Position numbers and translations under genes: made by a program. A stretch of DNA of 64,000 nucleotides. It comes from Dictyostelium discoideum. Taxonomy: Eukaryota. The notes beneath the pieces are model-generated. The model was not told the DNA's origin and made no database searches. It saw only the letters and a program-made list of their open reading frames with translations. The stretch covers positions 2,048,001-2,112,000 of the forward strand of contig CM000153.2 of assembly GCA_000004695.1 (NCBI GenBank). Direction: 5' to 3'. Positions 7,453-40,660 of this stretch are shown here, piece by piece. Positions within the stretch are counted from its first letter, which is position 1; the number at the start of each line of letters is the position of its first letter.

Positions 7453-8850
7453 TTATATTTTATTTAATTTAATTTTAAAATAATTTGAAGGTAAACAAAC
7501 TTCATTGATTGGTTTATATTTTAAATTTTTAAATGGTGTTACACCAGATTTTAAAAGTTGATAATGTCTTAACATTGCACATTCAAATTCACGAATTATA
7601 AAACCAGGTTTATAAGGATAATTATTTACACCTTTCCATTGCTCAATTGCAGTTTCATTTGTTCTCCAATTGAGAAGGATTTTATTATACTCATCATCAT
7701 TTTGATCTAAATAAATTAAATGATTTGCTAATTCCTGTGTAGAGTTAAAATCACCAACGTATATATAAGAATTGTATGGTAAATATTTGATAGTACTTGG
7801 ATGACCCATAAATATTGGTACGGAACCAGCAGTCAATGCATCCAATACTTTCTCAGATACGTAATCTTTACAAATTGAATTCTCAAAAACAATTGTAAAT
7901 TTATATTTTGTTATTACTTCTTTCTTTTTTGCAAAAGGATCATTTGATAATCTTTTTAGTATTTCTTGTGTTGGCATATTATTTAAACAGTGGCCATACG
8001 AATCGATAACTATATATTTCATTAATTCTTGAACGTATTCTAAACGATTAGATCGTACATCTTGACAATTTGAGCAGAACCAATTCGCCAATGGGAGTGA
8101 TGGTATTTGGTGAGGTTGTAGTGCACTTAGATTAGTGGTTTTCATAATTTGGTAATCTTTTTTAAATTGATTTTTAATTTCTACCATATCGCGTGCTGGT
8201 ATGAAATTATATGTTTTAAATGCGCTGGTTTTATGTGTATCGAATCCCGTTCTAATATCAGATTGTGCTTCGTAGGATACTTTAAAATTGAAAATTTTAT
8301 AACAAGTTTGATTGAATGAACAATGTCTGAGATGTGGTGGCTCTAATGCAATTATCATTCTTGGTATGGACTGGTTGTACTCTCTATCGGGGTACTGAAA
8401 TTGTATGCCTGAATCATTGTATATCTCCATGTCCACTGTTTGGTTTGGGTACATTGGTTTCTTTATTAAATAGTACCATCTTTTGTCGTCAATTCCTCTA
8501 CATCTTCTTGCTATATTATCATCTGTTGGCCTGTCAAATGATCCTAAAAATTTCAAATACACTAAATCCGATGGTACACCATCTGGCACCTGCTCAAGTG
8601 GTAGGTCGTCCTCACCTGCAAGTATATTATTTTGATCTTGAAAATCATTATCTAGATTATAAATATTATGGTGATATTTTTGATGTTCTGGACTATAAAT
8701 ATCAACCTCATCCTCAGATCCATAAAAAAATACATTTGCATCATCATCATCAAATAAACTATATTTTAAAATATTAAATCCTATAATAATTAATATTATA
8801 TAAAAATAAATTATTAAAAGTTTTCTTGAGAATGGTTTTATCCTTTTCAT
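7453..8850 (-). CDS. GT10-family alpha-1,3-fucosyltransferase-like type II membrane protein (paralog A), 465 aa
   Basis: Single ORF. N-terminal cytoplasmic tail plus a hydrophobic anchor (LLIIYFYIILIIIGFNIL). The C-terminal half carries the alpha-1,3-FucT motif KYKFTIVFENSICKDYVSEKVLDAL plus GSVPIFMGHPSTIKYLP, CSNC, and NETAIEQWKGVNNYP. About 55–65% identical over the catalytic region to the ORFs at 16096 and 18316. Confidence 0.8.
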   Translation of the reverse strand: MKRIKPFSRKLLIIYFYIILIIIGFNILKYSLFDDDDANVFFYGSEDEVDIYSPEHQKYHHNIYNLDNDFQDQNNILAGEDDLPLEQVPDGVPSDLVYLKFLGSFDRPTDDNIARRCRGIDDKRWYYLIKKPMYPNQTVDMEIYNDSGIQFQYPDREYNQSIPRMIIALEPPHLRHCSFNQTCYKIFNFKVSYEAQSDIRTGFDTHKTSAFKTYNFIPARDMVEIKNQFKKDYQIMKTTNLSALQPHQIPSLPLANWFCSNCQDVRSNRLEYVQELMKYIVIDSYGHCLNNMPTQEILKRLSNDPFAKKKEVITKYKFTIVFENSICKDYVSEKVLDALTAGSVPIFMGHPSTIKYLPYNSYIYVGDFNSTQELANHLIYLDQNDDEYNKILLNWRTNETAIEQWKGVNNYPYKPGFIIREFECAMLRHYQLLKSGVTPFKNLKYKPINEVCLPSNYFKIKLNKI

Positions 8851-9781
8851 TTTTTATTATTATTATTATTTTTATTATTATTTATAGTACAACTATTATT
8901 ATTATTATTATTATTTTACTATTACTATTATTATTTATTTTTATTTATTGTCATATATTAATTATTTTTTGTTTTTTGTTTTTTTTTTTTGTAAGCATCT
9001 TGAAAAATAAAAAAATTAAATTAAAAATAAATTAAAATTTGGTTTATCATTTTAAAAAAAAAAAAAAAAGTGCAATGTGTTTTTATTTTTTTCTTTTTTT
9101 TTTCTTTTTTTTTTTCTATATTTTTTTTTTTTTTGTTTTTTTTTTTATTTTAAAAATGAAATGCTCAAATGCCATATTTTTTATTTTTTTGAGATTTGTT
9201 TTTCTTTTCCCTTTTTTTTTTTTTTTTTTTTTTTAAAAACAATGGTTTTTGGATTTTTTTGGTCTTCCTTTTTTTAGAATTTTCCTTTTTTTTTTTTTTT
9301 TTTTTTTAAAAACAATATATCCAACTCATATTTAATCTAATATTATTTTTATTATTATGATATTGATGAGAGGAAAAAAAAAAACTAAGCCAAACTCCAA
9401 AGTTTTCAAAGAAATAGGAAGGTCCAAAAAAAGAAAAAAAAATATATGATTTTATATAAGGTAGAAAATTTATCACTTACCAAATTTCTTTTTTTTTTTT
9501 TTTTTTTAATCCAATTTAATTGAACTGAATCTTGATTTATTTTAAAATAATAAGTAAAAAAAAAAAAAAAAAAACAATTGTAAAATTTGAATTTATTTTT
9601 TTTTTTGTATTTTTTTTTTGTTTTTATTATAATAATTATATGTATGTTTTTATTTAACTCGATTAATCAGTGAGATATTAATTAGTGAGATAAGTTGAAA
9701 AAAAAAAAAAAAAAAAATAAAAAAAAAAAACCATTACCCAAAAACTTTTTTTTATTTTTAAATTTAAAAATAATTTTTTTT

Positions 9782-10244: not shown

Positions 10245-13200
10245 ATGAGTACTGGTTTAAAATGTTCGTCATGTGGTGCTTCAAATAGTAGTACATCAAA
10301 GTTTTGTACATCGTGTGGCAACAAAATGGCGGTGACAACAACGGCGGCATCGTCACCAACAGCACCATCAAAATCATTTTTAGCGCCAACGATTTCAAAA
10401 GTTACAGTTACCACAACTACAACAACTTCAAGTAGACCAGCATCAACAATAGTTAAACCATCACACTCAACTACAACAACAACAACAACAAGTAGACCAG
10501 CGTCAACAATTGTTAAACCAACAACAACCACAACAGCATCAACAGCATCAACTACACCAACAAAATCGATTTTAAAACCAACCACACATGTAACATCACC
10601 ATCAACAACAACAACAACAACAACAAATAATAATACAATCCCATCAAAATCAATTTTAAAACCAGTTTCTACAACTGTGTCTACACCTAAAACAACAGAA
10701 CCTTTAACAAGACCAAAATCTCACACAATTTCAGTTGGTACAGGTAGTAAGCCAACCACCACCACTACCACATCATCACCATCATCAACATCATTTGTAA
10801 AAATGGCAGCAAAGAGTAGAGAAAGTTTAGATAATCAAGCACAAAGAGATACAATGGTACTTCAAGGTTCTACATCAACACCTTTACCATCTTCAAAAAG
10901 TACTTTACAAATTAAGAAACCAACAACAACAACAACAACAACAACACCACCAACAAGTAGACCAGCATCAATGTCAGTATCAGTATCAACACCAAAACCA
11001 ATTCCATCCACCACCACTACAATCAATAAAACGACAGCAACAACAACAACAACACCGAATAAAACAAGTTCATCACCATCATCACCATCATTAATTGATA
11101 AACAAAAAGAGGCGGAAAGATTAGAAAAACAAATTCAAATTGAAAAAGAGAAATTCCATCAAAAAGAGAGAGAAATTGAACAAAATCGTCAACAGCAATA
11201 TGAAAAAGAGAAACAAGTTGAACGTGAAAAACTTGAACGTGAAAAAGAGAAACTAATTCAAATTGAACGTGAGAAATTCGAACGTGAAAAACAACAACAA
11301 CAAGACAAAGATGAACGTGAAAAACATAAACAACATGAAAAAGAAGAGCGTGAAAAACATAAACAACATGAAAGAGAAGAACGTGAACAAGAAAAACTAC
11401 ATCAAAAACAATTGGAAAAAGAACGTGAACAAGAAAAGCTACATCAAAAACAATTGGAAAAGGAAGAGAAAGAGAAACAACATCAAGAACGTGAAAAATT
11501 AAAACAATTTGAAAAAGATGAAAAAGAAAGAATTAGAAAATTAGAACGTGAAAAATATTTTTCAACACCACAACCACAAACAACCAGTAATTCAATAAAT
11601 CCAACACCATCATCACCATCAATTTCTTCACCATCATTAATTGCTAGTGGTGGTAGTATTAACAACGGCAACAACAACAACAGTCACAATGATAGTGGTG
11701 ACGAAGATTCAACAACTACAATCGCAACAACAACAACAACAACAACAACAACAACCAATAAAAAGAAAAGAGATAAAGAAAAACAAAAATCAAGAATATT
11801 TTCATTATTTTCCAGAATAAAAGATGATGAAGAAAATGATGAAGATGAATTAGTAATATCAAGTCCATCATCACCACCACCACCATCATCACCTACAGTA
11901 TCACCAACACCTGATAATCCAAACCAATCATCATTTAATATTTATGAAAAGGATAGTGGTGATATTAGGGATAGTGGTGATTTTTCAAATAATGGTGGTA
12001 CTATTGGTGAAGGTCAATTAAGAAAATGGGCTATTAAAAGGAATGAATTACAAAAATCTGAAGGAAATTTATTTGCACCATCATCACCATCACAAACCTC
12101 ACTTTCTGGTGCAGGTTTCCCAATTGGTTCACATAGTCCAAATAGTAGTAGTGGTTCATTGAATTTAGCATTAAATGGTAATGGTAATGGTTGTAGTAAT
12201 AATAATTTGGGAGCTACTACATCACCATTACCAATATCATCATTTATACCATCATCATCACCAATGGTTGGTAATAATAATAATTCACCATCAGGATTTC
12301 AAATGGGAACATCACGTATATCATCACCAAATCCACCACCAGATTTACCAAATAATTTACCACAAGCCATTGAACAACGTGATCGTGTAATTGAAGAGAT
12401 TATAGTGACAGAAGCCGATTATATTAGAGATTTAGAGATTATGGTTTGGTTAAAGAAAGAGATGACAATTCATGACAATGATACAACCAAAGGTAGTACA
12501 TTGGAAGAAATTAATTCATTATTTAGTAATGTTGAACAGTTATTATTGGTAAATAAAGAATTGTATAAAAAGTTTTGTAATTTTGATAATTCATTCAATA
12601 CAAAGGTTGAAGATGGTGGTGATGGTAGTGAAAAACCATTGTCATTTATAGACCATATTGCAAGTGGATTCGTTAGTATGGCAGATTTCTTAAAGTCTTA
12701 TTTCGTTTATTGTAGTAATCAACAAAAGGCGTTATCAACATTCTCTGCATTAAAGGGTAAAAATTGTACATATTTAGCATACCTATTGACAAGAAGAGAA
12801 TGTAGGTCATTACCATTCGATAGTTTCTTAATTAAACCAGTTCAAAGAGTTTGTAAATACCCATTATTAATTAGAGAGCTAATTAAAACCACACCACAAG
12901 ATTCCAAATCCTATGAGAATTTAATTAATGCTCAAAGTAAAATTGAGAGTATTGTATTCGCTGTCAATGAAAAGAAGAGAGAATTTGACTCACAAATGAA
13001 AATGCTTGACATTCAAAATGGAATCATTGAGTCTGGTGACACCACCACAAAGATTCTATCACCAAGTAGAAAGTTAATAAAAGAGGGTTCCATACAAAGT
13101 TGGGGTTCAACCATACCAACTGGTACACGTGATTTCATTTTCAAAAAGAAGAATAAAGAAGGTTACTATTACCTCTTTAATGATCTTTTTTTATATGCTG

Positions 13201-19789: not shown

Positions 19790-20242
19790 TTATTTAATTA
19801 ATTAATTTTTTTTTTTTTTAATTTTTTATTTTATTAATTTTCAAAAATATTTTTAAAATCATTAAAAAATGTTTTAATCACAAATTTTCAAATTAGTTAT
19901 AAATAAAAAATTAACACATTCTTAAGAATTTTTGTTTTTTTTTTTTTTTAAATAAACTGTTTAATTTTTATTTTTTTTAAAAATTAAAGGTAAATTAGTG
20001 GACAAAATAAAAAATTTAAATTAAATTATTACCCTTTTTTTTTTATTTTTATTATTAGTATTTTTAATTTTTAATGATTACATTCATTTTTTTTTACATT
20101 TCGAATGATTTTGTATATTGCAATATACTAAACCCATATTAAAAATAAATAAAATTAAATCATTTAAAATAATAAAATTAAAAATAATAAAAATAAATTA
20201 TTTTTTAACTTTCAAGTCTGACAATATTTCAACAATTACAAC

Positions 20243-20279
<37 letters not shown>

Positions 20280-20356
20280 AAAATTTGAAAATTGAAAAAT
20301 TTTTTTTCATTTACTTTTAATTTGATATGTACATTTAAAAAATAAAAAAAAAAACA

Positions 20357-22234
20357 ATGGATACGACATTAACTGAAACTATCCAAAATAACAATAATAT
20401 TAATAAATCAATAAATAATAAAAAAAAATTAAAACATCAAAAGAAAAAAGAACAAAAAAAGAAACAAAAACAACAAAAAAAAGAAGAGAATATATTTCAA
20501 CAAACTAATAATAATAATATAAAAGAAGAAATAAAACTTGAAAATAATGATGAAAATAATGATGAAAATAATAATAATAATGATGATGATAAAATAACAG
20601 CACCAATTGATGGATTTTCAATTGATGAGAATGATCCATCATTTGAATTATTTTCGAAATTAGTTAAACATTTTGATAACCCATATGAAGATCCAAAAGA
20701 GATTGAGAGAAAAGAACAAGAAGAACAAGAAGAAAAAGAAAGAAAAGAAAGAGAGGAAGAAGAAGAAAGAAAGAAAAAAGAAGATAATGAAGACGATGAT
20801 GATGATAATAACGATGATGATGATAATAATAATGATAATGAAGACGAGGATTCAAAGAAATTATCAAATAAAGAGAGAAAAAGACAAAGAAAATTACATT
20901 TACCAATTTTAAAACAGTTAGTTGATAGACCTGATGTTGTAGAGTTACATGATGTAAATTCACCAAATCCTGGCTATTTGATCGCAATGAAGTCCTATAG
21001 AAATACAATACCTGTGCCAGCACATTGGTGTCAAAAAAAGAAATACCTTCAAGGTAAGAGAGGTTTCGTTAAACCACCATTCGAATTACCATCATTCATC
21101 GCAGCGACAGGTATCACTAAGATTAGGGAGGCAATATTGGAGAAAGAGAAAGAGATGAAATCAAAACAAAAACAACGTGAAAGAGTTCAACCAAAAATTA
21201 GAAAGATGGGTATAGATTATGAAGTTTTACGTGACGCTTTCTTTGTTCATCAAACTAAACCAAATCTATCCATTCAAGGTGACCTCTACTATGAAGGTAA
21301 GGAATTCGAGGTTAACCTAAAGAACAAGAAGCCTGGTGTTTTATCCGACGAATTAAAGCGTGCACTTGGCATGATTGAGGGTTACCCACCACCATGGTTG
21401 ATTTATATGCAAACTTATGGTCCACCACCATCTTATCCAAATTTGAAAATACCCGGTGTTAACTCACCAATTCCAGAGGGTGCTCAGTATGGTTTTCATC
21501 CTGGTGGTTGGGGTAGACCAGTTTTAAATGAATTTGGTAAACCACTTTATGAAAATGTAAATAATAATAATAATAATATAAATAATAACGGAGATCAACA
21601 ACAGCAGCAACAACAATCACATCCAACTAGAGAATATTGGGGTGAATTATTACCAGAATCTGAAGATTTTCAAGAAGAAGAGGAACAACAAGAACAACAA
21701 GGTACTGAAGAAGATGAATTACAACAACACCAACTTGAAGATGATGAATCGATTGGTGATGGTATTTCAAGTGTACCAAGTGGTTTGGAAACTCCTGATA
21801 TTGTTAATATTAAAAAATCAAGATATGACCAACAACAACAGCAACAACAGCAACAACCAAGAGAATTATATCAAGTTATTGAACAACAAAATAAAAACTC
21901 ATCTTCTGGTGGTTTAATGGAATCAGCTCATCGTTATAATATACCATCAGTAATTAAACAACAACAGCAACAACAACAACAACAAAATTCATCTAGAGTA
22001 GATGTAATTAAATCTCAACGTTCTGCACCTGTAGAAATTACATTAAATCCATCAGAGGTTGAAAATGGTCAAGAAATTGATGAAGAACTTTTGAAAAAGA
22101 AATATGAACAAGCAACACAAGCATTACAGAAACAAAGACCAAAAGAAGACATTAGTGACATCATCGAAGAACAAAATAAAAAAAGAAAAAATCAATTACA
22201 AAAAGAAGAAAAACAAAAGAAATTCAAATTTTAA
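20357..22234 (+). CDS. sf3b2: splicing factor 3B subunit 2 (SF3b145/SAP145) homolog, 625 aa
   Basis: N/K/E-rich N-terminus, then DUF382 and PSP domains. The stretch LPILKQLVDRPDVVELHDVNSPNPGYLIAMKSYRNTIPVPAHWCQKKKYLQGKRGFVKPPFELPSFIAATGITKIREA...LYYEGKEFEVNLKNKKPGVLSDELKRALGM...PPPWLIYMQTYGPPPSYPNLKIPGVNSPIPEGAQYGFHPGGWGRPVLNEFGKPLYENV matches human SF3B2 nearly residue for residue. Single exon. Confidence 0.9.
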   Translation: MDTTLTETIQNNNNINKSINNKKKLKHQKKKEQKKKQKQQKKEENIFQQTNNNNIKEEIKLENNDENNDENNNNNDDDKITAPIDGFSIDENDPSFELFSKLVKHFDNPYEDPKEIERKEQEEQEEKERKEREEEEERKKKEDNEDDDDDNNDDDDNNNDNEDEDSKKLSNKERKRQRKLHLPILKQLVDRPDVVELHDVNSPNPGYLIAMKSYRNTIPVPAHWCQKKKYLQGKRGFVKPPFELPSFIAATGITKIREAILEKEKEMKSKQKQRERVQPKIRKMGIDYEVLRDAFFVHQTKPNLSIQGDLYYEGKEFEVNLKNKKPGVLSDELKRALGMIEGYPPPWLIYMQTYGPPPSYPNLKIPGVNSPIPEGAQYGFHPGGWGRPVLNEFGKPLYENVNNNNNNINNNGDQQQQQQQSHPTREYWGELLPESEDFQEEEEQQEQQGTEEDELQQHQLEDDESIGDGISSVPSGLETPDIVNIKKSRYDQQQQQQQQQPRELYQVIEQQNKNSSSGGLMESAHRYNIPSVIKQQQQQQQQQNSSRVDVIKSQRSAPVEITLNPSEVENGQEIDEELLKKKYEQATQALQKQRPKEDISDIIEEQNKKRKNQLQKEEKQKKFKF

Positions 22235-22280
22235 AAATTATCAAAACGTTTTGAATAATATCAAATAATAAATTTTTTAT

Positions 22281-23515
<1,235 letters not shown>

Positions 23516-23612
23516 TAACCTTTTTTTTTATTATTTTATTATTTGTATCTTTTATAATTAATAAAAAAAAAAAAAAAAAAAAAAAATGAAAAAATAAAAA
23601 CAAAAACAAAAC

Positions 23613-23646
<34 letters not shown>

Positions 23647-23985
23647 TTTTAAACAAAATAACTAATTTCTTTGAAATTATTTTCTTATTTCTTAAATCGT
23701 GCCATTGACACAACCTTTAAAAAATAAAAACAAAACTTTTTTTTTTGAAATAATTTAACTTTATATAATAATGAAAACGCTTCGCTAAACTAAATTAACT
23801 ATTGTCTATTTTTTTTTTTTTTTTTTTATTATTATTTTTTTTTTTTTTTTAATATAAGATTTTAAAGATATTATTAAAATCATCTAAAATTATTTTATTT
23901 CCAAAAAAAAAAAGTTTTCACACACCTTGAGGTTTTTTTAAAAAAAAAAATCAAAATTATTATTATATTATATTATTTAAATTGT

Positions 23986-24320
<335 letters not shown>

Positions 24321-24799
24321 CTGGATTATTTAAATAAAAATTATTGTTATTATTATTATTATTCATACATTCTACTCAAATCCGATATTGATAGATAAAA
24401 AAACCAGTACATACTATTTATTTATTGTGTGCTTTTTATATTTAGAGAATGAGAAAAAAAAAAAAAAAAATTTTAATCGAAAAAATAAAAATAAAAAAAA
24501 AATAAAAAATAAAAAAAATTGAAAATAAAAAATAAAAATAAAAAAAAAAAATGTTTTGTTTTTTTGATTTGTTAAAAAGAAAATTTTCTTTATTTTAAAA
24601 TAACTAGTTGTAATAGTATTTAAATTTTTACAATTGTTTTTTTTTTTTTTCCAAATAAGATTTAAAATATTAAAATATTAAAAGATTAAAAGATTAAAAG
24701 ATTAAAAGATTGATTGATAGTTTTTTTTGAATTAAAATAAATATAAATATATATGTGTATTAAATATAGTCGCCCAATTTGAGATCAAATGATTATTAT

Positions 24800-24930
<131 letters not shown>

Positions 24931-26222
24931 TATAATATTATTTTTATTATTGTTATTGTTATTGTTATTATTTAACCATTAAAAACACTAGAGAGAGACT
25001 AATTTAAGACACCCTGTGATGAGAAAAATATGATAGCCGCGAGAAAGAATTAAAATTTGAATTTATAAGTTGGTATTACAGAATTAAAAAAATAAAGGTT
25101 GATTTTTCACTTTTTTTTTAGTCCCTTAACACTAATTTCTAAAAATAGAAAAAAAAAAAAAATGTTAGAAATTTATAAATAAAAATAAAGCTATATTAAT
25201 AATTAAAAAAACTTACACCTTCTCTTTTAATGGAATTTCTATTACTATTTTTAAAAGAAGTTCTTTTTTTATTTCCCAATGGCTTTGAGGTTGGGAGAGT
25301 AATTAATAAAAATGGTAAAACATCCCACATTATGTTGATTTTATTATTATTATTATTATTATTTATAAAAATTAAAAATGTAGTTTTTAAAAAATACTAT
25401 TATTATTATTTTGAAGTGATTAAAATAATTTTTTTTTTTTTTATGATTTAATAAAAAATATTTAAATAATTTAAATAAATAAATAAAAATTTATGAAAAA
25501 AAAAAAATAAAGAAATTTAATTATAATTATTATTATTATTAATATTAATTATTATTATAATAAAAAATTGATTGTAGTAATATGAAAGTAGTAAACCGAT
25601 GAATGAAAATTAATTGAATATCGTTTTTTTATTATTTAATTGAAATAATAGTTTATTTTAATTTAATAAAAATATTAAAATTTATATATATAGTTAATTT
25701 TAATTATTTTAAAAAAATGGTTATTGTTATTTAGAAAAATATAAAATAATTTTATTTTGTTTTGATTAATTTTTTTTTTATTTAAGAAATTATTGAAAAT
25801 ATAATTTTTTAAATATTATATATTAAAATAATAATTAATATTTGGTATATATTTGATGATGTTGATGATGACGATTATTAATAATTAAATTCAAAAAATT
25901 ATCAATTAAATAATAATTATTAATTTAATAATTTTTTTTTTTTTTCTTTTTTTTTTTTTTTATAATGATTTAAAATATTATTATTATTATTATTATATTT
26001 TTGTTTTCTTATTAAATTTTTTAATAATTATTATTAGTATAAAAAATATCTAATATAATTGTATTTATATGGTGGGGTCTGTGGTGAGTTTGTGTGTATT
26101 TTGAATTAAAAAACAAAAAAAGTTTTTGATTGAACCAAATAAAGATAATTTATAAATTAAAAAACTAAGAGGCACAAAAAAAAAACAATGATTATAAATA
26201 ATATTAATAAATAATTTTAAAA

Positions 26223-26274
<52 letters not shown>

Positions 26275-27050
26275 ATATATATATTTGTTAATGTTTTGTT
26301 TTATGATAAATGATTTATTTTTTTTTTTTTTTTTTCTTTTGATTGATTTAAATAGAAAAAAAAAATTAATATTAATAAGGGATTGTGTGTATGGTTAGTA
26401 TTAATTAAAAAAAAAAAATATATGAAAAAAAAATTAATGCGTGATATTGGTAATGAAAATCAATATGGTGTGAAGGAGAGAGAGAGAGTATGTGTTTGTG
26501 TTTGTGTGTGTGGTTAGAGTGAGAGAGTTTGGGTGTTATTTGTGGAGTTAATGGGTTATTTATAGCCTATGATATTTTTGTCAACTCACACAACAACCCA
26601 AAAAAATAAAAAATTAAAAAATAAACCACATGACTAAAAATTCATTTAAGATTGTGTGTGATTACAAATTTTTGATTTTAGTTGGTTAAAAAAAAAAAAT
26701 TAAAAAAAAAAAAAAAAAAAAAAAACAATTATAATTACAAAGTCAAAATGTATATTTTAAAATAATATATTAAAATATAAATATTTAAGATTAGAAAGTG
26801 GGTTTGGTGTCTTTTTAGGTTTGGGGTGCTATGTATATTAATTTTTTTTTTTTAAAAAAAAAAAATTTATCGTGCTCTATGTATGTTTTTTAACTTAATA
26901 ACTGTATTTTAGTGTCTTTGTGTCTGCCCAAACTGGATTTTGTGTTAAATTTTTTTTATTTTTTTTTTTAAAAAAAAAAATAATCAAAAAAAAAAATTAA
27001 AAAAAAAAACAAATAAATTACACATCTAAAATACTATTAAAGAATTAATA

Positions 27051-27081
<31 letters not shown>

Positions 27082-27161
27082 GTTTTATCATTTTTAACCG
27101 TTAAATCAAACTATTATTTTTTTATTGATTTGTATATACAGGTTTTATTATTATAATGATT

Positions 27162-27199
<38 letters not shown>

Positions 27200-27228
27200 T
27201 TGAATGGAATTAAAAAGAATTTACTTTA

Positions 27229-27260
<32 letters not shown>

Positions 27261-27517
27261 TGATTAACAAAAAATTGTATAATCTGGTCTTTTTCAGATA
27301 TTTTAGAACCAAAAACAGAGATATTGGGTGATTGATATGTGGTGGGAGAGTACTTGTTTATTAATAAAAAACAAGCATAACCCCAACTACCCACACTACT
27401 ACTACTACAAATAACCACTTTGTTTATTTTACTGTATACTATTAGTTTCACAGGATATTTCTTAATTATATATGATTATTAATCTGCATCTGATTTATTT
27501 CTTTTTTTACTATACTA

Positions 27518-27548
<31 letters not shown>

Positions 27549-27795
27549 CTGCATCTTTTTTTAAATCAAGATTCTACTACTTGTTTTTTTTTTTTTTTTA
27601 TTTTTTTTTTCTTTGTGATTATTGACGATTTCTAAAAATAGTTTTTTACAACGATTAAAAGTTATTATTGATTTTTCTTTGTGATTTGATTTTTATTAAT
27701 TAATAAACCGAAATGAATGATTAATTAATTAATTATTTACCTATCAAAATTATAATCAATCTTGATTTTTTTTTTTATGTGAATTTAATTTAAAT

Positions 27796-27945
27796 TTTGT
27801 TTTTCAAACATTTTTTGCTTTTCTTTTAAAAATAAACCAATAATTAGCCAATCGACTAACGTTTAAAAATATTTTTATTTTTATTTTTATTTTTATAATA
27901 ATAAAAAAGGAGTTTTGTTTTTAAATTTTTTATTATTTATATTTC

Positions 27946-27978
<33 letters not shown>

Positions 27979-28478
27979 ATATAAAATAAAATAAATAAAA
28001 TAAAAATTACCTGACTTAAAAATGTAAAGAATTGTGTTTATTGTCCAAATTAAAAAAGTGATATTTTTTTTTTATTAAAATTATTTTCTTTTTATTTTTA
28101 AAATAAAGATACAATTAATTTAAAACAAAAAGAGGAAGAAATTGGGAAGGGTTCAAGATTTTCATAAAAATTTTAAAATAAAATAAATATTAAAATTTTT
28201 TTTTTATTTTTTTTTGAATCTGACAATTGGTAACAACTTTTTTTATATTTTTTTTTATTTTTTTTTATTTTTTTTTATATATTATTTGATTCACAGTTAA
28301 AGCTTCTTTTTTTTTTTATTTTTTTTTTTTTTTCTTTTTGTGTACTATCAAAGTTGATTGGGTTTTTTAACCAATCACAACGTGATGGTAGTGGCAATAT
28401 AAAACAAATTTTTTTTTTTTAGTTTAATAATTTAACACTTTATAAAAAAAAAAAAAAAAATCATCACATACTTTTATG
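27796..28478 (+). repeat. copy 1 of a roughly 0.7-kb direct segmental repeat
   Basis: Near-identical to 30871..31668. Shared blocks include ttttgtttttcaaac, gcttttcttttaaaaataaaccaataattagccaatcgactaacgtttaaaaatatttttatttttatttttatttttataataataaaaaaggag, ttgtccaaat, ttattaaaattattttctttttatttttaaaataaagatacaattaatttaaaacaaaaagaggaagaaattgggaagggttcaagattttcat, gtactatcaaagttgattgggttttttaaccaatcacaacgtgatggtagtggcaatataaaacaa and aatcatcacatacttttat. The copies differ mainly in homopolymer-tract lengths. Confidence 0.9.
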
Positions 28479-29505
28479 AGAAAAAAAAAAAGATACATAA
28501 AATTTAAAATGAGTAATAAAATAGCAAACCAGAAAAGTTTGATGAATATTGGCAATGTTTTCACTTAAAAATGGTACAAAAAAAGAATGGAAGAGGTGAA
28601 GGTAATGTTTATTTTGGTTTAAAATTGTATAGTTGCAATAAATGTGACATAAAGAGATGTGTATACCGCCATCTCCACCTGAACACACTTTCAATTCAAC
28701 AGTATTATTCATAAGATACTATATAGAGAAAAGATTAATCTCAAATCACATAATAATCAATAATAATAATAACTAATAATAATGACCAATAATAATAATA
28801 ATAATAATAACTAATAAACTACATTAAAGTTTAAACAAGTTAATTCAAACTATGTAATCAGTTTTATTTTATAGAATTATTATTCTTCATCTAAATTTAA
28901 TTTAATTCTGTCATTGATTTCAATTGATAAATAAAATTTTAACATATCACACCAAGTGTTTTTTTTATTTTTTTTTTTTTTATTTTAATAATGCCAATAT
29001 TATTTTATTCTTATACTTGGCAACCTTCTCAAAGAACGCCAATCCCAAGTTCATCAACTGGTTAAGAAAGGTATCTGATCTTTGCATACCAATCGGTGGA
29101 ACCATTATACGTTTTGCATTTAGTAATATACTTTGGTATGGAATGAAAAACTTTTATAAAAAGCATGGTTTTTAAAAAAAAAAAAAATCTTTTTTTTACA
29201 AAAAAAAAAAAAAAAATGAAAAAACGAAAAAATGGTTTTAGCTCGCATTTTTAAAATATCATGATTTTTTTTTTTCTTCCATTTATTCTTTATGTTTTTT
29301 TCCCTCGTGGATTTATCTTCGATCGAACCGTCACATCTCTTTTATTTATAATAAAAATAACAAAAATTATTTTACCATCATTTGTCATTTTAAAAATAAA
29401 TATAAATAAACATAAACATTAAACAAACAACAACAATAACAATAACAACAACAACATAATATAATCAATATAATTTTAATATATATATATAGATAATAAA
29501 TAAAT

Positions 29506-30422
29506 ATGAAGATAATAAATAGTTTTCTTATTACATTAATTTTTGTTCAATTAATTTTACAAATTAATGGTATAAATGAAAGTTTATTTAATCAAAACAG
29601 ACAAGTTAGAAAATCAAATTTAGAAGATGATATACCATTATACTTTTCAGTATTACCTTTTGCAAGAGGTAATTTTTAATCAACATTATATATTTATAGA
29701 ATACACAATTTTTTTTACATCAATATTAACATCATCATCATCATCATATTAAATATATATAATTATTTATTTTTTTACATATTATAGGTAATTATTCATG
29801 CTCATTTGGTGGTATTTATGGAATTGGATTCCTTGGTTTAATAAATCAATGTGTCAATGATCCATATAATCCAGATTATAATTATTACATTTTCTTACAA
29901 GAGCAAGGTTCAGATAATGAACAAATTGTGTATCAATTACATAATAAAACCGATACCGATTGTACTGGTGAACCACCATTTTCAAATTATCATTTCATAA
30001 ATAGAGAGGGAACATGTGATGCCGCCCCTAACTTTATCGGTTTAGAGGATCAAATTGTAGATTTATACAACGAAAATAATGGTCAAAGATATCTCTATGA
30101 TGAACCTGCCTTTATAACTGTTTCCGATATGCCATATTCTGCTCATAACTCTGTATTCTTTGCTCTTTATAATCAAAGTTTTTGTAGTTCTGAAGCTCAA
30201 TATCCACACTATGCAAAAGTTTTTTCAATTGGTTTACAAATGTTAACTCAAGAAGGTGTCACCTATTTCTATTCATGTGATCCACATACTTATCTTCCAC
30301 AAATTACACTCTGTAAAAGTAAGGATAATTGTGAAACTAAAGCTTTAGATAATAGTTGTTCACTTGTAGATGGTACAGAAGATGTTTATCAACAAATCTT
30401 CTGTTCCCCAAGTTTTCAATAA
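29506..30422 (+). CDS. secreted cysteine-rich protein of unknown function, about 266 aa
   Basis: Exon 1 29506..29668 encodes MKIINSFLITLIFVQLILQINGINESLFNQNRQVRKSNLEDDIPLYFSVLPFAR (cleavable signal peptide). The donor is g|gtaattttt. A 119-bp intron ends in the acceptor attatag|GT. Exon 2 29788..30422 encodes GNYSCSFGGIYGIGFLGLINQCVNDPYNPDYNYYIFLQEQ...CTGEPPFSNYHFINREGTCDAAPNF...CKSKDNCETKALDNSCSLVDGTEDVYQQIFCSPSFQ. It has 14 Cys and several N-glycosylation sequons. I do not recognise a family. Confidence 0.65.
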
Positions 30423-30471
30423 ATAAATTAAATTTTTGAAATCACTATAAATTATATATTATTATCATTTC

Positions 30472-30508
<37 letters not shown>

Positions 30509-30870
30509 ATTGTTGATTCATTATCATTATAACTACTATCTTATGATTGAGTATTTATCTATTTCATTCTCTAATTGTTGTTGCCTATCAATTTATTATT
30601 AGTTAAAATGCTGTATGACGAAGATGATAATAATAGAGATAAAAAAAAAACTTTTGTAATAAATTTTCAAAAAAACTTAAATGAATGAGTTATGGGGTTA
30701 AAGACATTTTAATAAACAACATTACAACACACATTAAAATAATGAATAATTCATTAAAGATAATATCTTTATTTTTCATTATCTATTTATCTATTGATAA
30801 ATTCACATAAAAAAGAAAATCAAGATTGATTATAATTTTGATAGGTAAATAATTATTTAATAATAAATAA

Positions 30871-31294
30871 ATTTTGTTTTTCAAACTTTTTTTGCTTTTC
30901 TTTTAAAAATAAACCAATAATTAGCCAATCGACTAACGTTTAAAAATATTTTTATTTTTATTTTTATTTTTATAATAATAAAAAAGGAGTATTGTTTTAA
31001 AATTTTTTATTATTTAAATTTCCAAAAAAAAAAAAAAAAAAAAAAAATAAAAATAAAATAATATAAAATAAATAAAACAAAAAATTACTTGACATAAAAA
31101 TGTAAAAAATTGTGTTTATTGTCCAAATAAATAACAAACAAAAAAAAAAAATAAAAGTGATATTTTTGTTTTTATTAAAATTATTTTCTTTTTATTTTTA
31201 AAATAAAGATACAATTAATTTAAAACAAAAAAGAGGAAGAAATTGGGAAGGGTTCAAGATTTTCATTAAAAAATTAAAAATAAAATAAATATTG

Positions 31295-31325
<31 letters not shown>

Positions 31326-31335
31326 AAAAAAATTT

Positions 31336-31409
<74 letters not shown>

Positions 31410-31668
31410 AATCAGACAGTTGGTAACAACTTTTTTTATATTTTTTTTTTTTTTATTTTTTTATTTTTTTTATATTATTTGATTCACAGTTAAAGCTTTT
31501 TTTTTTTTTTTTTTTTTTTTTCTTTTTTGTGTACTATCAAAGTTGATTGGGTTTTTTAACCAATCACAACGTGATGGTAGTGGCAATATAAAACAAAATT
31601 TTTTTTTTTTTAGTTTAATAATTTAACACCTTTTATGAAAAAAAAAAAAAATCATCACATACTTTTAT
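30871..31668 (+). repeat. copy 2 of the roughly 0.7-kb direct segmental repeat
   Basis: See copy 1. This copy carries a roughly 100-nt poly(T) expansion at 31330..31408. It lies immediately upstream of the gene starting at 31840. Confidence 0.9.
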
Positions 31669-31795
31669 AAAAAAAAAAAAAAAAATATTTTTTTAAAATT
31701 TAAAAAGAAGAATAGATATTCAATCAAAAATTTATTTATTAAAACAATAATAATAATAATAATAAAATAATAAACAAACCAAATTTAAAGCAAAA

Positions 31796-31828
<33 letters not shown>

Positions 31829-31839
31829 GAACAGGCAAT

Positions 31840-36303
<4,464 letters not shown>

Positions 36304-37225
36304 CCATTAAATAAAATGATGAAATCAAACATTGTAAATTAAACACAACCAATTTTTTTTTTTTTTTTTTTTTATTTTAACTAATAAAGTTTTTTCCAAT
36401 AATTTAAAGTTGTGATGGTGAATTAATAGAAAATAAAGAAAAAAGAGTAAAGTTTGATTCTGTTACATTTGGAAATCAAAGTAAAGAAGATTTAATATTG
36501 GAACCAAAAGATGGTAATTTTGATTGTATTGCAGAAATTTATGTACCACCAGAAGCATTAAAAATATTTACAGATGGATACCAATCACAAGCATTCTATT
36601 TGATTATTTTTTTACACCTCCTACTTTTGCATTAAGAGAATTTATTTTAAAAAACAACTTAAGATGTATTTAGGAAAAATTATCAACCAAGGTGTATTTC
36701 AATGCATATTAGAAAGAGCGATAAATTTAAATAATCAAAGGTTTTGATTACAAACTTTATCAAACAACAAATTTACGAGTATGATAAAAACTATAATCAA
36801 GTAATTCAAGAATATAATAAAGAGCATGAAGGGAATAATAGGCATATCGTTCCTTTGATTCCAAATCTCAAAGAAACAATTCATCTTTTTTGGGTAAAGA
36901 TGCGAAATCCTTTGTTGGTTAAAAAGATTATAATAAATATAAAAATAATATATTAAAAAAAAAATTTAAATAAAATAAAATATTAATCGAAAAATTAAAA
37001 AAAAAAATTTATAAACCCAAAAATTGAATCGAATAGTGCATTTATTTTTAGGTTTATTATTATTTATTATATTTATTATTATTTATTATTATTTATTATA
37101 TTAATTAATATTTTTCACAGGACTTTTTTAACTGCTGGAGTGAAAATTTTCACAATATTTTTTTTTTTTTTTTTTTTTCCACTTGATTTTTTACGTCTAT
37201 ATCGATGCACTTATTCATATAAAAA

Positions 37226-38826
37226 ATGAAAAATAATAAATCAAAAAATAATATCAATACTACAACCATAGCACCAGTAGATAATAATAATGATAATAAC
37301 AACAACAAAAATGACAGTAGTAGTGGTAGTATTAATACAAATAAAAATGTATCATATGACACAAAATGTAATATTCATTTAGATCAAGAGATTGAATTAA
37401 TTTGTACAGATTGCAAAGTACCAATATGTAAATTTTGTATAATTAGTAGTGGTAAACATGTTAGACATACATTTGATTTAATTAAAATGGAAAATTCAAA
37501 AGAACTCTTTATTGAATTTAAATCAAAACATATTAAAAATTTACAACAATGTCTTGATGCAGATAAAGAAATTCAAAAAAAATCAAATGAGATATTTAGT
37601 AAAATTGATTCACAACATGCATCAGATTTAGAATCAATAAAAAAGGGATTTGAAGAATTACGTAAAGTAATTAGTGCAGTTGAAACAGATATAACAAGAC
37701 AATTAATAACTAAATTCGATGAGAATGAAGATGTATCAACTAAAATCAAACAATTAATAGAAGATAATAAAAAATCTATAGATTCAATTGTAAATAAACA
37801 TAAAGATTCAATTGATACTTATAAAATTGAACAAATCGTTAATAATAATAAACAATTGAATATTGAATTATTAAAGTATGGTCATAAATCACAATTATTA
37901 TTCAATAATTTAAAAGATAATGAAAATGAAAAACAACTATTTGAATATAAAAAAACAACTTTAAATAGGTTAATTGATTCAACTAAACAATCAATTACCA
38001 ATTCATTTAAAATCAATTCTGACCAATTTTATAATCCAGAACCGGATTCTTTTGAATGTAATGTATCCAAATTATAAAATAATATTGATAATATGCAAAC
38101 ATATATATATATTAACTCTTTTATAATTTTATTATTGTTTTATTTTAAAAAGTACGTGGTGTAAAATTTAAAATATATAGGGATGGAACAAAAAATGTAA
38201 ATTTTAATAGTTCTGTAGCATTTGGACCACATAATAAAACTTCTATTCGTTTTTCCATCTTCCACTCTCTCACTACTGTATGCTTAATGGATGGATTTGA
38301 TCAAACACTTTATGCTAATACATTACCAACATCAATAACAGATTTATATATTGGTGATATTAAATCCAATTTAGTTGTAGGTTCAATTCCTAAAAGTGTT
38401 AAATCATTATTTTTAATGGATGGATTTAGTCGATCATTAGAATCTGGTATTATTCCAGAAAATGTAGAAAATCTCTATATAGGTAAAATTAAATCAAAAT
38501 TAAGTAATACTTCAATTTCTAGTTCTAATAATCCACTTTACCACTATGGTGCCTATAATAAAAGATCATTATACTTGATGGATGGTTTCGATCAAAACTT
38601 AACATCTCAAATGTTTTCAAATGGTACTTTAGAAACTATATGTTGTGGTGATACTGATGTTATCATTCAATATGGTATTACAGTCTCAAATTCTGGATCC
38701 TATACACCTGTCATTTATAATCAAAAATATAAACACACCAATAAAAGACAACTAGATGAAAAAAGAGAATGGGGTGATTCTTCATTCAAAATTACATATA
38801 TCAAAAATTTCTTTAATCACAATTGA
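37226..38826 (+). CDS. B-box zinc finger plus FNIP-repeat protein (Dictyostelium-type architecture), about 502 aa
   Basis: Exon 1 37226..38057 encodes an N-rich N-terminus, CNIHLDQEIELICTDCKVPICKFCIISSGKHVRHTF (B-box C/H zinc finger) and a coiled coil. The donor is GAA T|gtaatg. A 95-bp intron ends in the acceptor ttaaaaag|TA. Exon 2 38153..38826 is open in frame from RGVKFKIYRDGTKNVNFNSS... through three FNIP-like repeats (MDGFDQTLYANTLPTSITDLYIGDIKSN..., LMDGFSRSLESGIIPENVENLYIGKIKS..., LMDGFDQNLTSQMFSNGTLETICCGD). Confidence 0.75.
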
Positions 38827-39290
38827 TATTGATGATGATGATGATGATGATCATAGGTATTAGGATTATAAATATAGTTAATATTTTATGTTGATTCAAT
38901 TAAAGTAAGGAATACCATTAAACATAAATAAAAATGTGTGTTAAAAAAAAAAAAAAAAAAAAAGAATTCAAAAAACAGAATGATTACATTGATTTTTTTA
39001 TTTTTTTTTTATTTTATATCATTTCGTGTATTTTTTGAGTGATCCATATGTAAAAAATAAATAAAATTTAATTATTGTTAAAAAATGAAAAAAAAAAAAA
39101 AAAAAAAAGAATGAAAATATTTTATTTTTTATTTTTATTTTTATTTTAAAACCAACGCATTTTAATTATCTGAATGAGGTGATTGGTTAAAAAGAATTTT
39201 TTTAATTTTTTTTTTTTTTTAATTTTTTTTTTTTTTGTAACCCCAGATTTTTTCAAATATCTAACTTTTTTTTTTCACTTTTTTTCTTCA

Positions 39291-39321
<31 letters not shown>

Positions 39322-39339
39322 AAATAGACTTTCAGCGAA

Positions 39340-39607
39340 ATGGAAAATAATAATAATGAACCTGCAGAAACAGTCCAAGAAAAAGGACCAAAACTAAAAA
39401 ATGACATTGATTTAAATGACCAATTTAAAGATGAAAAAGAAAAAAAAGAGGAAATATCAAGTTCCTCAATTGAAAATAAAAATAATAATAATAATAACAC
39501 TTCCACCAATAATGTAATACCAAATGAAAGTAATAATAACATTTCTAACAACAATGTAATATCAAATGAAAATAATAATACCAATAATAATACCGATAAT
39601 AATACCG

Positions 39608-39650
<43 letters not shown>

Positions 39651-40660
39651 ACCTGTAACATCATTTACTGTTAATAATAAAAGTTTAATTGAAAAAGAAC
39701 CAACATTATTTGAATTTAATCAAGAACAACAAATTAAATATAAAAATAAAAGTATTAATAGTTTAATAATAAAAAGATCTGGTATAGTAATTAAAATCAG
39801 TCAAAAGAAATCAACTATAATATATCAAGATTCAATAATTGCTTGTTCAGAATTACCCGATAATTTTGATACAGCAACGACAACAACCACCACAACAACA
39901 ACACTACCAATAAAAGTAACATTATTTACATGTGTATTAAAGAAAAAGCAATTAACAATTGATAAAGAACAAAGAAAAAGAAAATCTTATACTTTTCAAT
40001 TTAAAAGCAATCAAGATTCTTTAAATTTTTATTCAAATATTCAATCAACATTTTTAAATTCATTACCAAGTATGTTTATTAAATTAATTAATTAATATTT
40101 TTTAAAAACTTCTTACATATTAACTTTTTTTTTTTTTTTTTTTTTTAGGAGGTAATCCAAAGAATAGAAAGATTAGAATTTTAATTAATCCAAAATCAGG
40201 TAAAAAGGAAAGTCATAATATTTTTAAAGAGGTTGAACAATTATTTAAAGATTCAGGTATAAAAATGAAATTAACTGTTACTATGGAACCAGAACATGCG
40301 AAAAAGATTGGATTCAAATCGAATATTTACAAGTATGATACCGTTGTATTTATATCTGGTGATGGTTTATTACATGAATTTATAAATGGATTATTATCAC
40401 GTGAGGATTATGAAGATGCTAAAAAGATACCACTTGCATTAATACCAGCTGGTACTGGTAATGGTTTAGCCAATTCAATTGGTTTACAAGATCCAATGTC
40501 TGCTGCTTTAGCTATTTTACGTGGTTTCACTAAACCTTTAGATGTTTGTATTGTACAACAACCAACTGTAACAACAATTCCTGTCGTTGATAATAATACA
40601 GTAACAACAACAACTACTACTACTTCTCCAACTAGTGCTTCTCCAACTATTACATCAGCA

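Follow-up and report, generated by a model that had tools for sequence, protein, structure and literature searches.

The locus described here lies within a 64-kb window (the whole stretch of Dictyostelium discoideum AX4 DNA analysed) and holds two forward-strand genes together with several repeated non-coding segments, the coordinates of which are collected in Table 1. The first gene, DDB_G0284511, encodes a Cys-rich secreted protein whose spliced translation equals XP_638537.1 / Q54PJ5 and matches Pfam PF11912 at 98.4 bits against a cut-off of 28.6, which places it in the CfaA_B_C family. Homology searches returned its own cluster alone, with no close relative in the databases searched; an exhaustive phmmer search returned its own fragment, two weak partial matches and nothing else, and a literature search found no papers on the gene. 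The second gene starts at 31840. The initial annotation had called it an FN3 gene, a label for which Pfam gave no confirmation.

Table 1. Features of the locus, with positions given within the window
Feature	Position	Strand	Evidence or remark
upB, promoter-distal segment left of X	27478..27723	+	one copy in AX4, two in L004
Second independent in-place micro-inversion site, between T-run and A-run	27611..27633	+	CTTTGTGATTATTGACGATTTCT compared across copies
X, left 64-bp copy, ancestral orientation	27724..27787	+	62/64 against the reverse complement of 30798-30861
R1, left promoter copy, apparently a relic	27791..28518	+	blastn against R2; 96.6% over 715 aligned bases
Conserved 70-bp core in R1	28340..28409	+	TATAAAAC 28398-28405; poly-T 28409-28420; predicted relic start near 28422
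Extra piece of ~230 bp, G+C-richer, interrupting the left copy in the AX4 lineage	28519..28750	.	
mid1b, upstream region arriving with the putatively inserted gene	28926..29505	+	kept in L002-L004, 78-80% with gaps
DDB_G0284511, 265-aa secreted Cys-rich protein, CfaA_B_C family	29506..30422	+	one intron, 29669-29787
mid2, 3' flank of the putatively inserted gene	30423..30797	+	
X', 64-bp piece flipped in place in the right copy	30798..30861	-	inverted in 4/4 other discoideum-clade assemblies
R2 with 5'UTR and first 28 nt of CDS, right copy still joined to its own gene	30868..31867	+	blastn; single-copy orthologue in D. citrinum and D. firmibasis
Conserved 70-bp core in R2	31529..31598	+	TATAAAAC 31587-31594; poly-T 31599-31611; predicted start near 31613

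Direct repeats, conserved core and inverted 64-mers

Comparison of the window with itself by blastn joined R1 (27791-28518) to R2 (30868-31714) with E values of 1e-173 and 1e-123, and a global alignment of the two gave 24 mismatches in 715 aligned positions (96.6% identity) with 145 gap positions, nearly all of them inside A/T runs. The copies as first described, at 27796-28478 and 30871-31668 with about 95% identity, were essentially right, the repeat being slightly longer at both ends. Within AX4 the repeated portion of R2 stops at 31714, R1 being without the 5'UTR and start-codon portion of the original unit, and no ORF of at least 60 aa is found in R.

Both copies contain a 70-bp core, identical between R1 and R2 (31529-31598) at 69 of 70 positions, with the last base differing and the inner 37-nt GC core unchanged; its motifs are the inverted CCAAT-type TTGATTGG / CCAATCAC / GTGATGG. 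The conserved GC core singled out by the initial annotation thus proves to be part of a deeply conserved 70-bp block that ends in a TATA box and poly-T: at the outgroup loci of D. citrinum and D. firmibasis, which were reached through a RAD51C-like neighbour gene, this block is 94-97% identical in a promoter most of which is unalignable. Across the D. discoideum genome, the rule is that TATAAA(A/T)(A/T) precedes the start by about 29 bp and that a poly-T on the sense strand stops about 2 bp short of it (PMC3371697). Like this canonical core promoter, R2 and R1 each have TATAAAAC followed by 3-4 A and a poly-T of 12-13 nt, placed in both at the 3' end of the most conserved promoter block; unlike it, they have C rather than A/T at the last TATA position and a distance of about 23 bp, as compared to about 29 bp, from TATA to the predicted start. 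In R2 that start, near 31613, would lie about 227 nt before the ATG at 31840. From these motifs we infer that the GC core serves the downstream gene as its proximal promoter, composed of CCAAT-type sites, a TATA box and poly-T.

A small-RNA gene was also considered for the core and is unlikely, the sole substitution in a hairpin arm (a 7-bp arm, D. firmibasis TTGATTGG to TCGATTGG) being uncompensated. An Rfam scan of 20000-40000 at E<=1 gave no match, and a metagenome scan for the core gave 0 matches. R has 6 CCAAT/ATTGG in its 728 bp and the window as a whole 3.6 per kb, an enrichment too weak to support a claim.

To the left of each repeat lies a 64-mer, X or X', in opposite orientations. 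This pair had been described as an inverted junction repeat of 45 bp with an exact reverse complement; the inversion stands, the length is 64 bp, and the string originally quoted is 37 nt long (27729-27765), with one mismatch in its counterpart at 30820-30856. The 37-mer of X and the 37-nt GC core have exactly two occurrences each in the 64-kb window and no match in any of 100 shuffles of it, and in the six loci examined X and the core are present solely at the expected places. The flanks, GAATGATTA immediately before X and AATAATAAATAAA immediately after X' (GATTA, AATAA), show no target-site duplication and no common short direct repeat.

Strain assemblies and the in-place inversion

Four other discoideum-clade assemblies were compared, one with an AX4-identical protein and three from divergent isolates, which are probably the Nanopore and Illumina genomes of PMC12745789. 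The order and orientation X-R1-gene-X'-R2 are identical in all four, so that the check originally proposed, whether the two copies collapse to one or change inversion state in other strains or assemblies, finds both copies kept in the same state throughout. An assembly artefact, in which one repeat had been laid down twice, might be suspected from the low-complexity, homopolymer-rich sequence and from homopolymer runs that are of unequal length in the window and L001 (40 gap positions in R2), but it has next to no probability given two copies in five assemblies made by different methods and copy-specific substitutions and indels inherited across strains.

The extent of the duplicated unit is best seen in isolate L004, where the duplicate is fuller, at about 1.2 kb, beginning some 240 bp to the left of the 64-mer and ending 28 nt into the CDS of the downstream gene. 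A blast of L004 against itself matches 8143-9169 to 11438-12518, and the match continues to 9364 on the left and 12640 on the right, where AATATTACAACAACTCCTTCATCAATAATAA and AATATGGCAACAACTCCTTCACCAATAATAA agree at 28/31 positions; the comparison of left 9334-9364 with right 12610-12640 scores 47, the best of 500 shuffles scoring 36. In the left copy the start codon has changed from ATG to ATT. The duplicated unit is a promoter plus a gene start.

With regard to its left end, window positions 27478-27721 match L004 at 11438-11671 in direct orientation (88%) in addition to the orthologous left site, and the presence of upB in both L004 copies implies that upB was part of what was duplicated or was copied again there. 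The right-hand upB copy in L004 is bracketed by an exact direct repeat of 18 bp that reaches across the inversion junction, and this copy may therefore be partly secondary. In L004 mid2 is followed by about 390 bp of extra DNA (unique sequence and upB) that is missing from AX4, L002 and L003; the homology of an L004-specific 160 bp to the left flank or upB was not above shuffles.

L004 also settles the nature of the inverted 64-mer. There, the inverted X has direct-oriented upB as its immediate neighbour on the left and R on the right, and since the flanks of X' are collinear with the left copy on both sides and X is not terminal, the comparison shows X' to be an in-place micro-inversion of 62-64 bp inside a longer direct duplication and not a terminal inverted repeat. 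The single copies of D. citrinum and D. firmibasis both carry X in the orientation of the AX4 left copy, so the flip is assigned to the right copy, which has remained connected to its gene, and it is this flip of a 62-64 bp piece that gives rise to the inverted 64-mer pair.

The duplication plus inversion proposed initially is therefore right in outline, with only 62-64 bp flipped in place and not the 3-kb segment. Inversion of the whole 3-kb segment by recombination between the 64-mers, in the past or as a switch still operating, is in principle conceivable with inverted repeats of this length. Against it, R1 and R2 are direct, the gene is direct relative to the downstream gene, all five assemblies are in the same state, flipping the segment gives no simpler ancestral arrangement, and the L004 flanks show 64 bp alone inverted; we regard it as very unlikely.

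A second in-place micro-inversion occurs at the same locus, in a 23-bp segment. The sequence CTTTGTGATTATTGACGATTTCT or its diagnostic parts is forward in the window, in L001-L003, in the L004 right copy and in D. citrinum, and it is reverse-complemented, with both flanks collinear, only in the L004 left copy, at L004 8246-8268; this private case is a precedent for micro-inversion at the locus. As for X, AT-only palindromic motifs, TTAATTAA / AATTTAAATT, stand at both breakpoints, and DNA folding found no stable stem bridging the two (z = +0.48). Chloroplast spacers offer well-described cases of small in-place inversions in AT-rich non-coding DNA, associated with hairpins or short inverted repeats. 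The present case is like these in that 62-64 bp are reversed between collinear flanks, the breakpoints lie in AT-only self-complementary motifs, and a second case lies between a T-run and an A-run at the same locus. It is unlike them in that no stable stem joins the X breakpoints, it concerns a promoter in the nuclear genome of an amoeba, and the X flip is fixed in all discoideum-clade assemblies examined and not polymorphic.

Outgroup loci, polarity and the putatively inserted gene

In D. citrinum and D. firmibasis the gene at 31840 has an orthologue that is immediately preceded by a single up-X-R. DDB_G0284511 has no tblastn match in either syntenic locus, mid1b is missing from both, and the distance from RAD51C to the gene is 4.8-5.0 kb as compared to 8.25 kb in D. 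discoideum. The region mid1b is probably the own promoter of DDB_G0284511.

These loci bear directly on the other explanation first offered for the layout, a non-autonomous element with terminal inverted repeats. TIR transposons and MITEs are known in Dictyostelium, for instance the DDT, Tdd and thug families, and a MITE-like or other non-autonomous DNA transposon with the 64-mers as termini and R1 and the secreted-protein gene as cargo would resemble them in having a 64-bp inverted pair, 97% complementary and 3 kb apart, around a segment missing from two related species. However, the repeats are not terminal, as in L004 direct homology runs about 230 bp left of X and more than 1 kb to its right; X belongs to the orthologous single-copy promoter and sits at the same position there, so that the “empty” state still has X; and the DNA missing from the outgroups is one duplicate unit plus the 2-kb insert, which is not bounded by X and X'. 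Nor is there a target-site duplication, a common inverted repeat between the ends of the 2-kb insert, a further copy in the 64-kb window or the six loci, or an ORF of the length given above in R; a tRNA scan, as a check for TRE-type targets, found no tRNA gene in the window. We consider such a transposon extremely unlikely. The syntenic single-copy orthologues in two species also argue against a known Dictyostelium repeat (TRE, DIRS, skipper, DDT). The suggestion of a transposed promoter module keeps its promoter, R2 being the predicted promoter and 5'UTR of the gene at 31840, and loses its transposition, R1 being the left half of a local duplication that in L004 retains 28 nt from the start of that gene's CDS.

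R1 and R2 are collinear direct copies that are closer to each other than to the single copy of the sister species: their divergence is 2.7-5.9%, with about 88% of bases alignable, and divergence from the D. citrinum copy is 5.5-9%, with only about 55% alignable. These distances are consistent with a duplication of roughly the same age as the strain split and with a higher rate of change in R1. Parsimony and the low paralogue divergence favour, and do not prove, a gain of both duplication and insertion on the D. discoideum branch, ahead of the divergence of the sampled strains.

Alternatively, the duplication and DDB_G0284511 might already have existed when D. citrinum and D. firmibasis branched off, with gene conversion keeping the copies alike and with loss in the outgroups by direct-repeat recombination. 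Recombination between the direct copies would excise the gene cleanly and yield the outgroup state with X in its left orientation, and such a pop-out between 1.2-kb repeats is easy and leaves the single copy with left-type X that is seen. DDB_G0284511 is too divergent from all other proteins for a fresh copy, and this lack of a close relative, unexpected in a recent copy, would also suit an older origin followed by loss elsewhere. Within-strain variants common to both copies (three informative sites, and AAACTG in L004) and four-point sums slightly favouring within-strain pairing point the same way. On the other hand, this history needs two independent losses, or one in a common ancestor, against a single gain; the cleaner distances need no conversion; and the inverted X and the private indels were not homogenised between the copies. 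An old origin is, on balance, unlikely.

Whatever its age, R1 looks, from its sequence, like a decaying relic promoter. Differences between orthologues amount to 4.4-6.1% in R1 as compared to 2.0-3.2% in R2, R1 has large lineage-specific indels, and the L004 left copy has TACAAAAC instead of TATAAAAC and AAACAAT instead of AACCAAT; in AX4 the TATA/poly-T core of R1 is intact. Over 162 outgroup-conserved footprint columns R1 has 3-10 substitutions and R2 5-9, with more gaps in R1 only, and because the substitutions are similar and the gaps alone differ, relaxed constraint on R1 has moderate support. The piece that interrupts the left copy at 28519..28750 has no match in L002-L004 (query mid1 1-408); at its site L004 has R2-like sequence, and L002 and L003 are deleted between two ATCACAT microhomologies. 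Had the whole unit been duplicated in tandem, a decayed DDB_G0284511 would be left upstream of R1; tblastn and blastn found none there.

A proposed course of events and its meaning

We put at roughly 80% the account in which a local duplication of a promoter and gene start around a 2-kb insert, together with the in-place flip of 64 bp, explains the whole locus with no new mobile element. The ancestor would have had one promoter, upB-X-R-5'UTR-ATG, for the gene starting at 31840, the arrangement seen today in D. citrinum and D. firmibasis. About 2 kb of new DNA with DDB_G0284511 would then have been placed some 28 nt inside the CDS of that gene, with about 1.2 kb of sequence, from the promoter through the 5'UTR to the first codons, duplicated in direct orientation on either side. 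Of the two copies, the right one would have stayed joined to the intact gene, with the left one becoming a redundant relic, and the 62-64 bp piece of the right copy would have been flipped afterwards or in the same event, perhaps aided by the short self-complementary motifs at both of its breakpoints. Such an origin would be an error of repair or replication, for instance a tandem duplication capturing DNA at its junction through template switching, and not transposition.

Replication-based template switching of the FoSTeS/MMBIR type, which has junction microhomology as its defining signature, produces duplications with foreign DNA captured at the junction. In its layout the locus resembles this class: some 2 kb of unrelated DNA is enclosed by direct copies measuring about 1.2 kb, with a small inverted piece, a lineage-specific distribution and no transposon hallmarks. 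It differs in the place of the inverted piece, which in L004 is some 230 bp into the copy and not at a junction. Large direct duplications, of at least 15 kb, vary between laboratory stocks of D. discoideum (PMC2643946). Direct duplications are common in this genome; the present one differs in measuring 1.2 kb and in being present in divergent discoideum-clade isolates as well as in the laboratory-strain genome.

One of two further scenarios might apply, though we consider it improbable that either does. A gene-relocating process in Dictyostelium might insert a gene into the 5' end of another and regenerate the promoter and start of the host; or R1 might have been co-opted as a distal promoter of DDB_G0284511, in which case that gene would share regulation with its neighbour.

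Under the favoured account of local duplication, insertion and flip, the locus is ordinary genome evolution, with no new kind of element or mechanism. Its 70-bp TATA/poly-T block is a well-defined promoter element, conserved in three species and directly testable. Tiny in-place inversions in AT-rich DNA can mimic the terminal repeats of transposons, and for Dictyostelium intergenic regions in which short inverted repeats stand beside direct repeats, a MITE should not be called without an outgroup. The locus also provides a cleanly reconstructed example of a lineage-specific gene landing in the 5' end of another gene with the host gene surviving, because the rearrangement itself also duplicated the promoter and start codon of the host.

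Layout of the duplicated segment

The repeat layout described in the initial annotation is real, with small errors only in length, exactness and coordinates. This follows from self-comparison of the window (23% G+C), which recovers a pair of direct repeats, R1 and R2, and an inverted pair, X and X' (table), and from the quoted 37-nt string and the GC core conserved inside each repeat copy, each of which has just two occurrences in the 64 kb and none in shuffled sequence. The alignment of R1 with R2 has 715 aligned positions, 24 of them mismatched, and a further 145 gap positions, nearly all within homopolymer runs. The supposed 45-bp exact inverted repeat stands as an inverted pair, but not in its size or exactness, and the string quoted for it is 37 nt long, its reverse complement recurring with one mismatch. 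Inside R2, at 31296-31411, an A-run then a T-run of ~70 nt is not of equal length in the window and in L001, an AX4-like assembly (R2 as a whole shows 40 gap positions between the two); either the homopolymers change length here or the assemblies do not fix their length reliably.

Features of the duplicated locus (window positions unless stated)
Feature	Position	Description
R1, left direct repeat	27791-28518	pairs with R2 in window self-comparison
R2, right direct repeat	30868-31714	pairs with R1 in window self-comparison
X	27724-27787	64 bp, directly left of R1, orientation opposite to X'
X'	30798-30861	64 bp, directly left of R2; 62/64 match to X, inverted
Conserved 70-bp block	28340-28409 (R1); 31529-31598 (R2)	94-97% identical in three species
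Left-copy interruption	28519-28750	230-bp insertion, G+C-richer, AX4 lineage only
Second micro-inversion	27611-27633; L004 8246-8268	~23 bp between T-run and A-run
DDB_G0284511 / Q54PJ5	29506-30422	one intron, 29669-29787; translation exact match

An exact-protein look-up gave four further assemblies of the locus, L001-L004, which probably correspond to the Nanopore+Illumina genomes of PMC12745789. L001 encodes a DDB_G0284511 protein identical to that of AX4, and L002, L003 and L004 (the last labelled D. cf. discoideum) are divergent discoideum-clade isolates. The inversion state and copy number proposed for checking proved uniform: all four carry two copies, and their X, R1, gene, inverted X and R2 are ordered and oriented as in the window, which rules out an assembly artefact. 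Inversion of the whole 3-kb segment has no support, as the flipped state occurs in none of the five assemblies.

The full unit is best seen in L004, where the two copies match at 8143-9169 and 11438-12518. The ~230 bp on the left side of the left X (window 27478-27721) recur in direct orientation to the left of the inverted X in the L004 right copy, and an L004-specific variant is common to both stretches. Farther right, the left copy has an (AAT)n run and 5'UTR-like sequence, then AATATTACAACAACTCCTTCATCAATAATAA; 28/31 positions of this agree with AATATGGCAACAACTCCTTCACCAATAATAA, where the coding sequence of the downstream gene begins (score 47; maximum 36 in 500 shuffles). The duplicated unit therefore spans ~1.2 kb (L004 left 8143-9364, right 11438-12640) and comprises distal promoter, X, R, 5'UTR and the first 28 nt of coding sequence. 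Between the two units lie 2073 bp with DDB_G0284511. A loss of ~390 bp, ending at the edge of X', has shortened the right copy in AX4, L002 and L003, and in the same three the 3' part of the left copy is lost or scrambled. Two small ORFs, 47 aa (+) and 82 aa (-), lie in the left-copy interruption; this piece and adjoining sequence are missing from L002 and L003 owing to a deletion bounded by two ATCACAT microhomologies. In L004, an 18-bp exact direct repeat, TGAAATGAATGATAAATT (11399-11416 and 11654-11671), brackets the right-hand copy of the segment preceding X and spans the inversion junction, which would imply a further local duplication or slippage after the inversion.

Polarity, age and the inserted gene

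The syntenic loci of D. citrinum and D. firmibasis were reached via the neighbouring RAD51C-like gene. Both have a single copy of the upstream segment, X and R, directly upstream of the downstream gene's orthologue; the RAD51C-to-downstream-gene interval is 4.8-5.0 kb as compared to 8.25 kb in D. discoideum, and tblastn of DDB_G0284511 against the two loci gave no match. Since X in both is oriented as in the left copy of D. discoideum, we place the flip in the right copy, which still serves the gene. On the D. discoideum side, no gene is called in the ~2 kb (25500-27478) that separate TMA7 from the duplicated unit; approximately 1 kb of sequence leading up to X (26700-27723) can be aligned with D. 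citrinum at ~69%.

Substitution distances, computed in confidently aligned blocks only, are 2.7-5.9% between R1 and R2 within a strain, 1.1-3.2% among R2 orthologues, 1.0-6.1% among R1 orthologues and 5.5-9% between the D. discoideum copies and D. citrinum, about half of the sequence being alignable in the last case. The simplest history is that the D. discoideum lineage gained the arrangement not long before the sampled strains split. The serious rival is an ancient duplication with copies homogenised by gene conversion, in which recombination between the repeats popped the gene out of the outgroups; a left-type X would remain in that case too. This rival is strengthened somewhat by the few variants common to both copies within a strain and from the lack of a detectable close relative of DDB_G0284511, phmmer against 1.8 billion representative proteins returning only a fragment of the protein itself; however, it needs more events than a recent gain and is not required by the distances.

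The DDB_G0284511 product is a 265-aa secreted Cys-rich protein of the Pfam family CfaA_B_C (98 bits). Between strains the protein is ~94% identical and exon 2 DNA ~97%, which suggests fast protein evolution. In its upstream region a G+C-richer patch (29020-29170), kept in L002-L004 and with no long ORF, could be a relic exon from the insert's donor locus.

Probable promoter function of the two copies

In the outgroup alignment the promoter is mostly barely alignable, with a few nearly invariant blocks, the 70-bp block (table) foremost among them. The 70-bp block holds three CCAAT-type motifs in alternating orientation and ends 3' in TATAAAAC followed by 12-13 nt of poly-T, much like the TATA plus poly-T architecture of Dictyostelium core promoters genome-wide (PMC3371697). 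The predicted transcription start lies near 31613, which puts it ~227 nt upstream of the ATG (31840). The repeat had been proposed to be a transposed promoter module; consensus match and conservation argue for the GC core as proximal promoter of the downstream gene, but the duplication is local and "transposed" falls away. Nor did Pfam confirm the "FN3" label of that gene, whose spliced region (31840-36303) gave only sub-threshold Ig-like or beta-sandwich matches; a word-index protein search with a non-repetitive 307-aa part of it found nothing, not even its own product.

R1 orthologues diverge ~1.5-2 times faster than R2 orthologues and carry large private indels, and the L004 left copy has changes in the TATA box (TACAAAAC) and one CCAAT motif. 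Substitutions in outgroup-defined footprint columns are not clearly more frequent in R1 than in R2, and the R1 core is still intact in AX4. We read R1 as a decaying relic promoter, which may still fire toward DDB_G0284511, 1.1 kb downstream.

Origin of the duplication and micro-inversions

The locus shows a direct 1.2-kb duplication around 2 kb absent from the sister species, plus an in-place inversion of 62-64 bp. The earlier idea of duplication plus inversion holds in outline, with the inversion confined to X and not extending to the 3-kb segment. One repair or replication error probably produced the duplication and captured the insert together; alternatively, a tandem duplication might have come first and the insertion afterwards. 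A transposon carrying the locus, raised initially as a non-autonomous element with terminal inverted repeats, conflicts with the locus in the features that define such elements, X being internal and reversed in place. Transposon hallmarks are missing as well: there is no target-site duplication, the 2-kb insert has no inverted ends, no tRNA lies near the locus and R has no coding capacity.

The X breakpoints sit in AT-only self-complementary motifs, but DNA folding gave no stem bridging them, which leaves a repeat-assisted inversion plausible but not demonstrated. In its favour is the second micro-inversion, reversed only in the L004 left copy and independent of the X flip, an observation that also points to repeated flips of this kind in the intergenic DNA of Dictyostelium. 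The locus is a real, well-resolved, lineage-specific structural change of modest interest, made up of known kinds of change, a local duplication with insertion plus micro-inversions.
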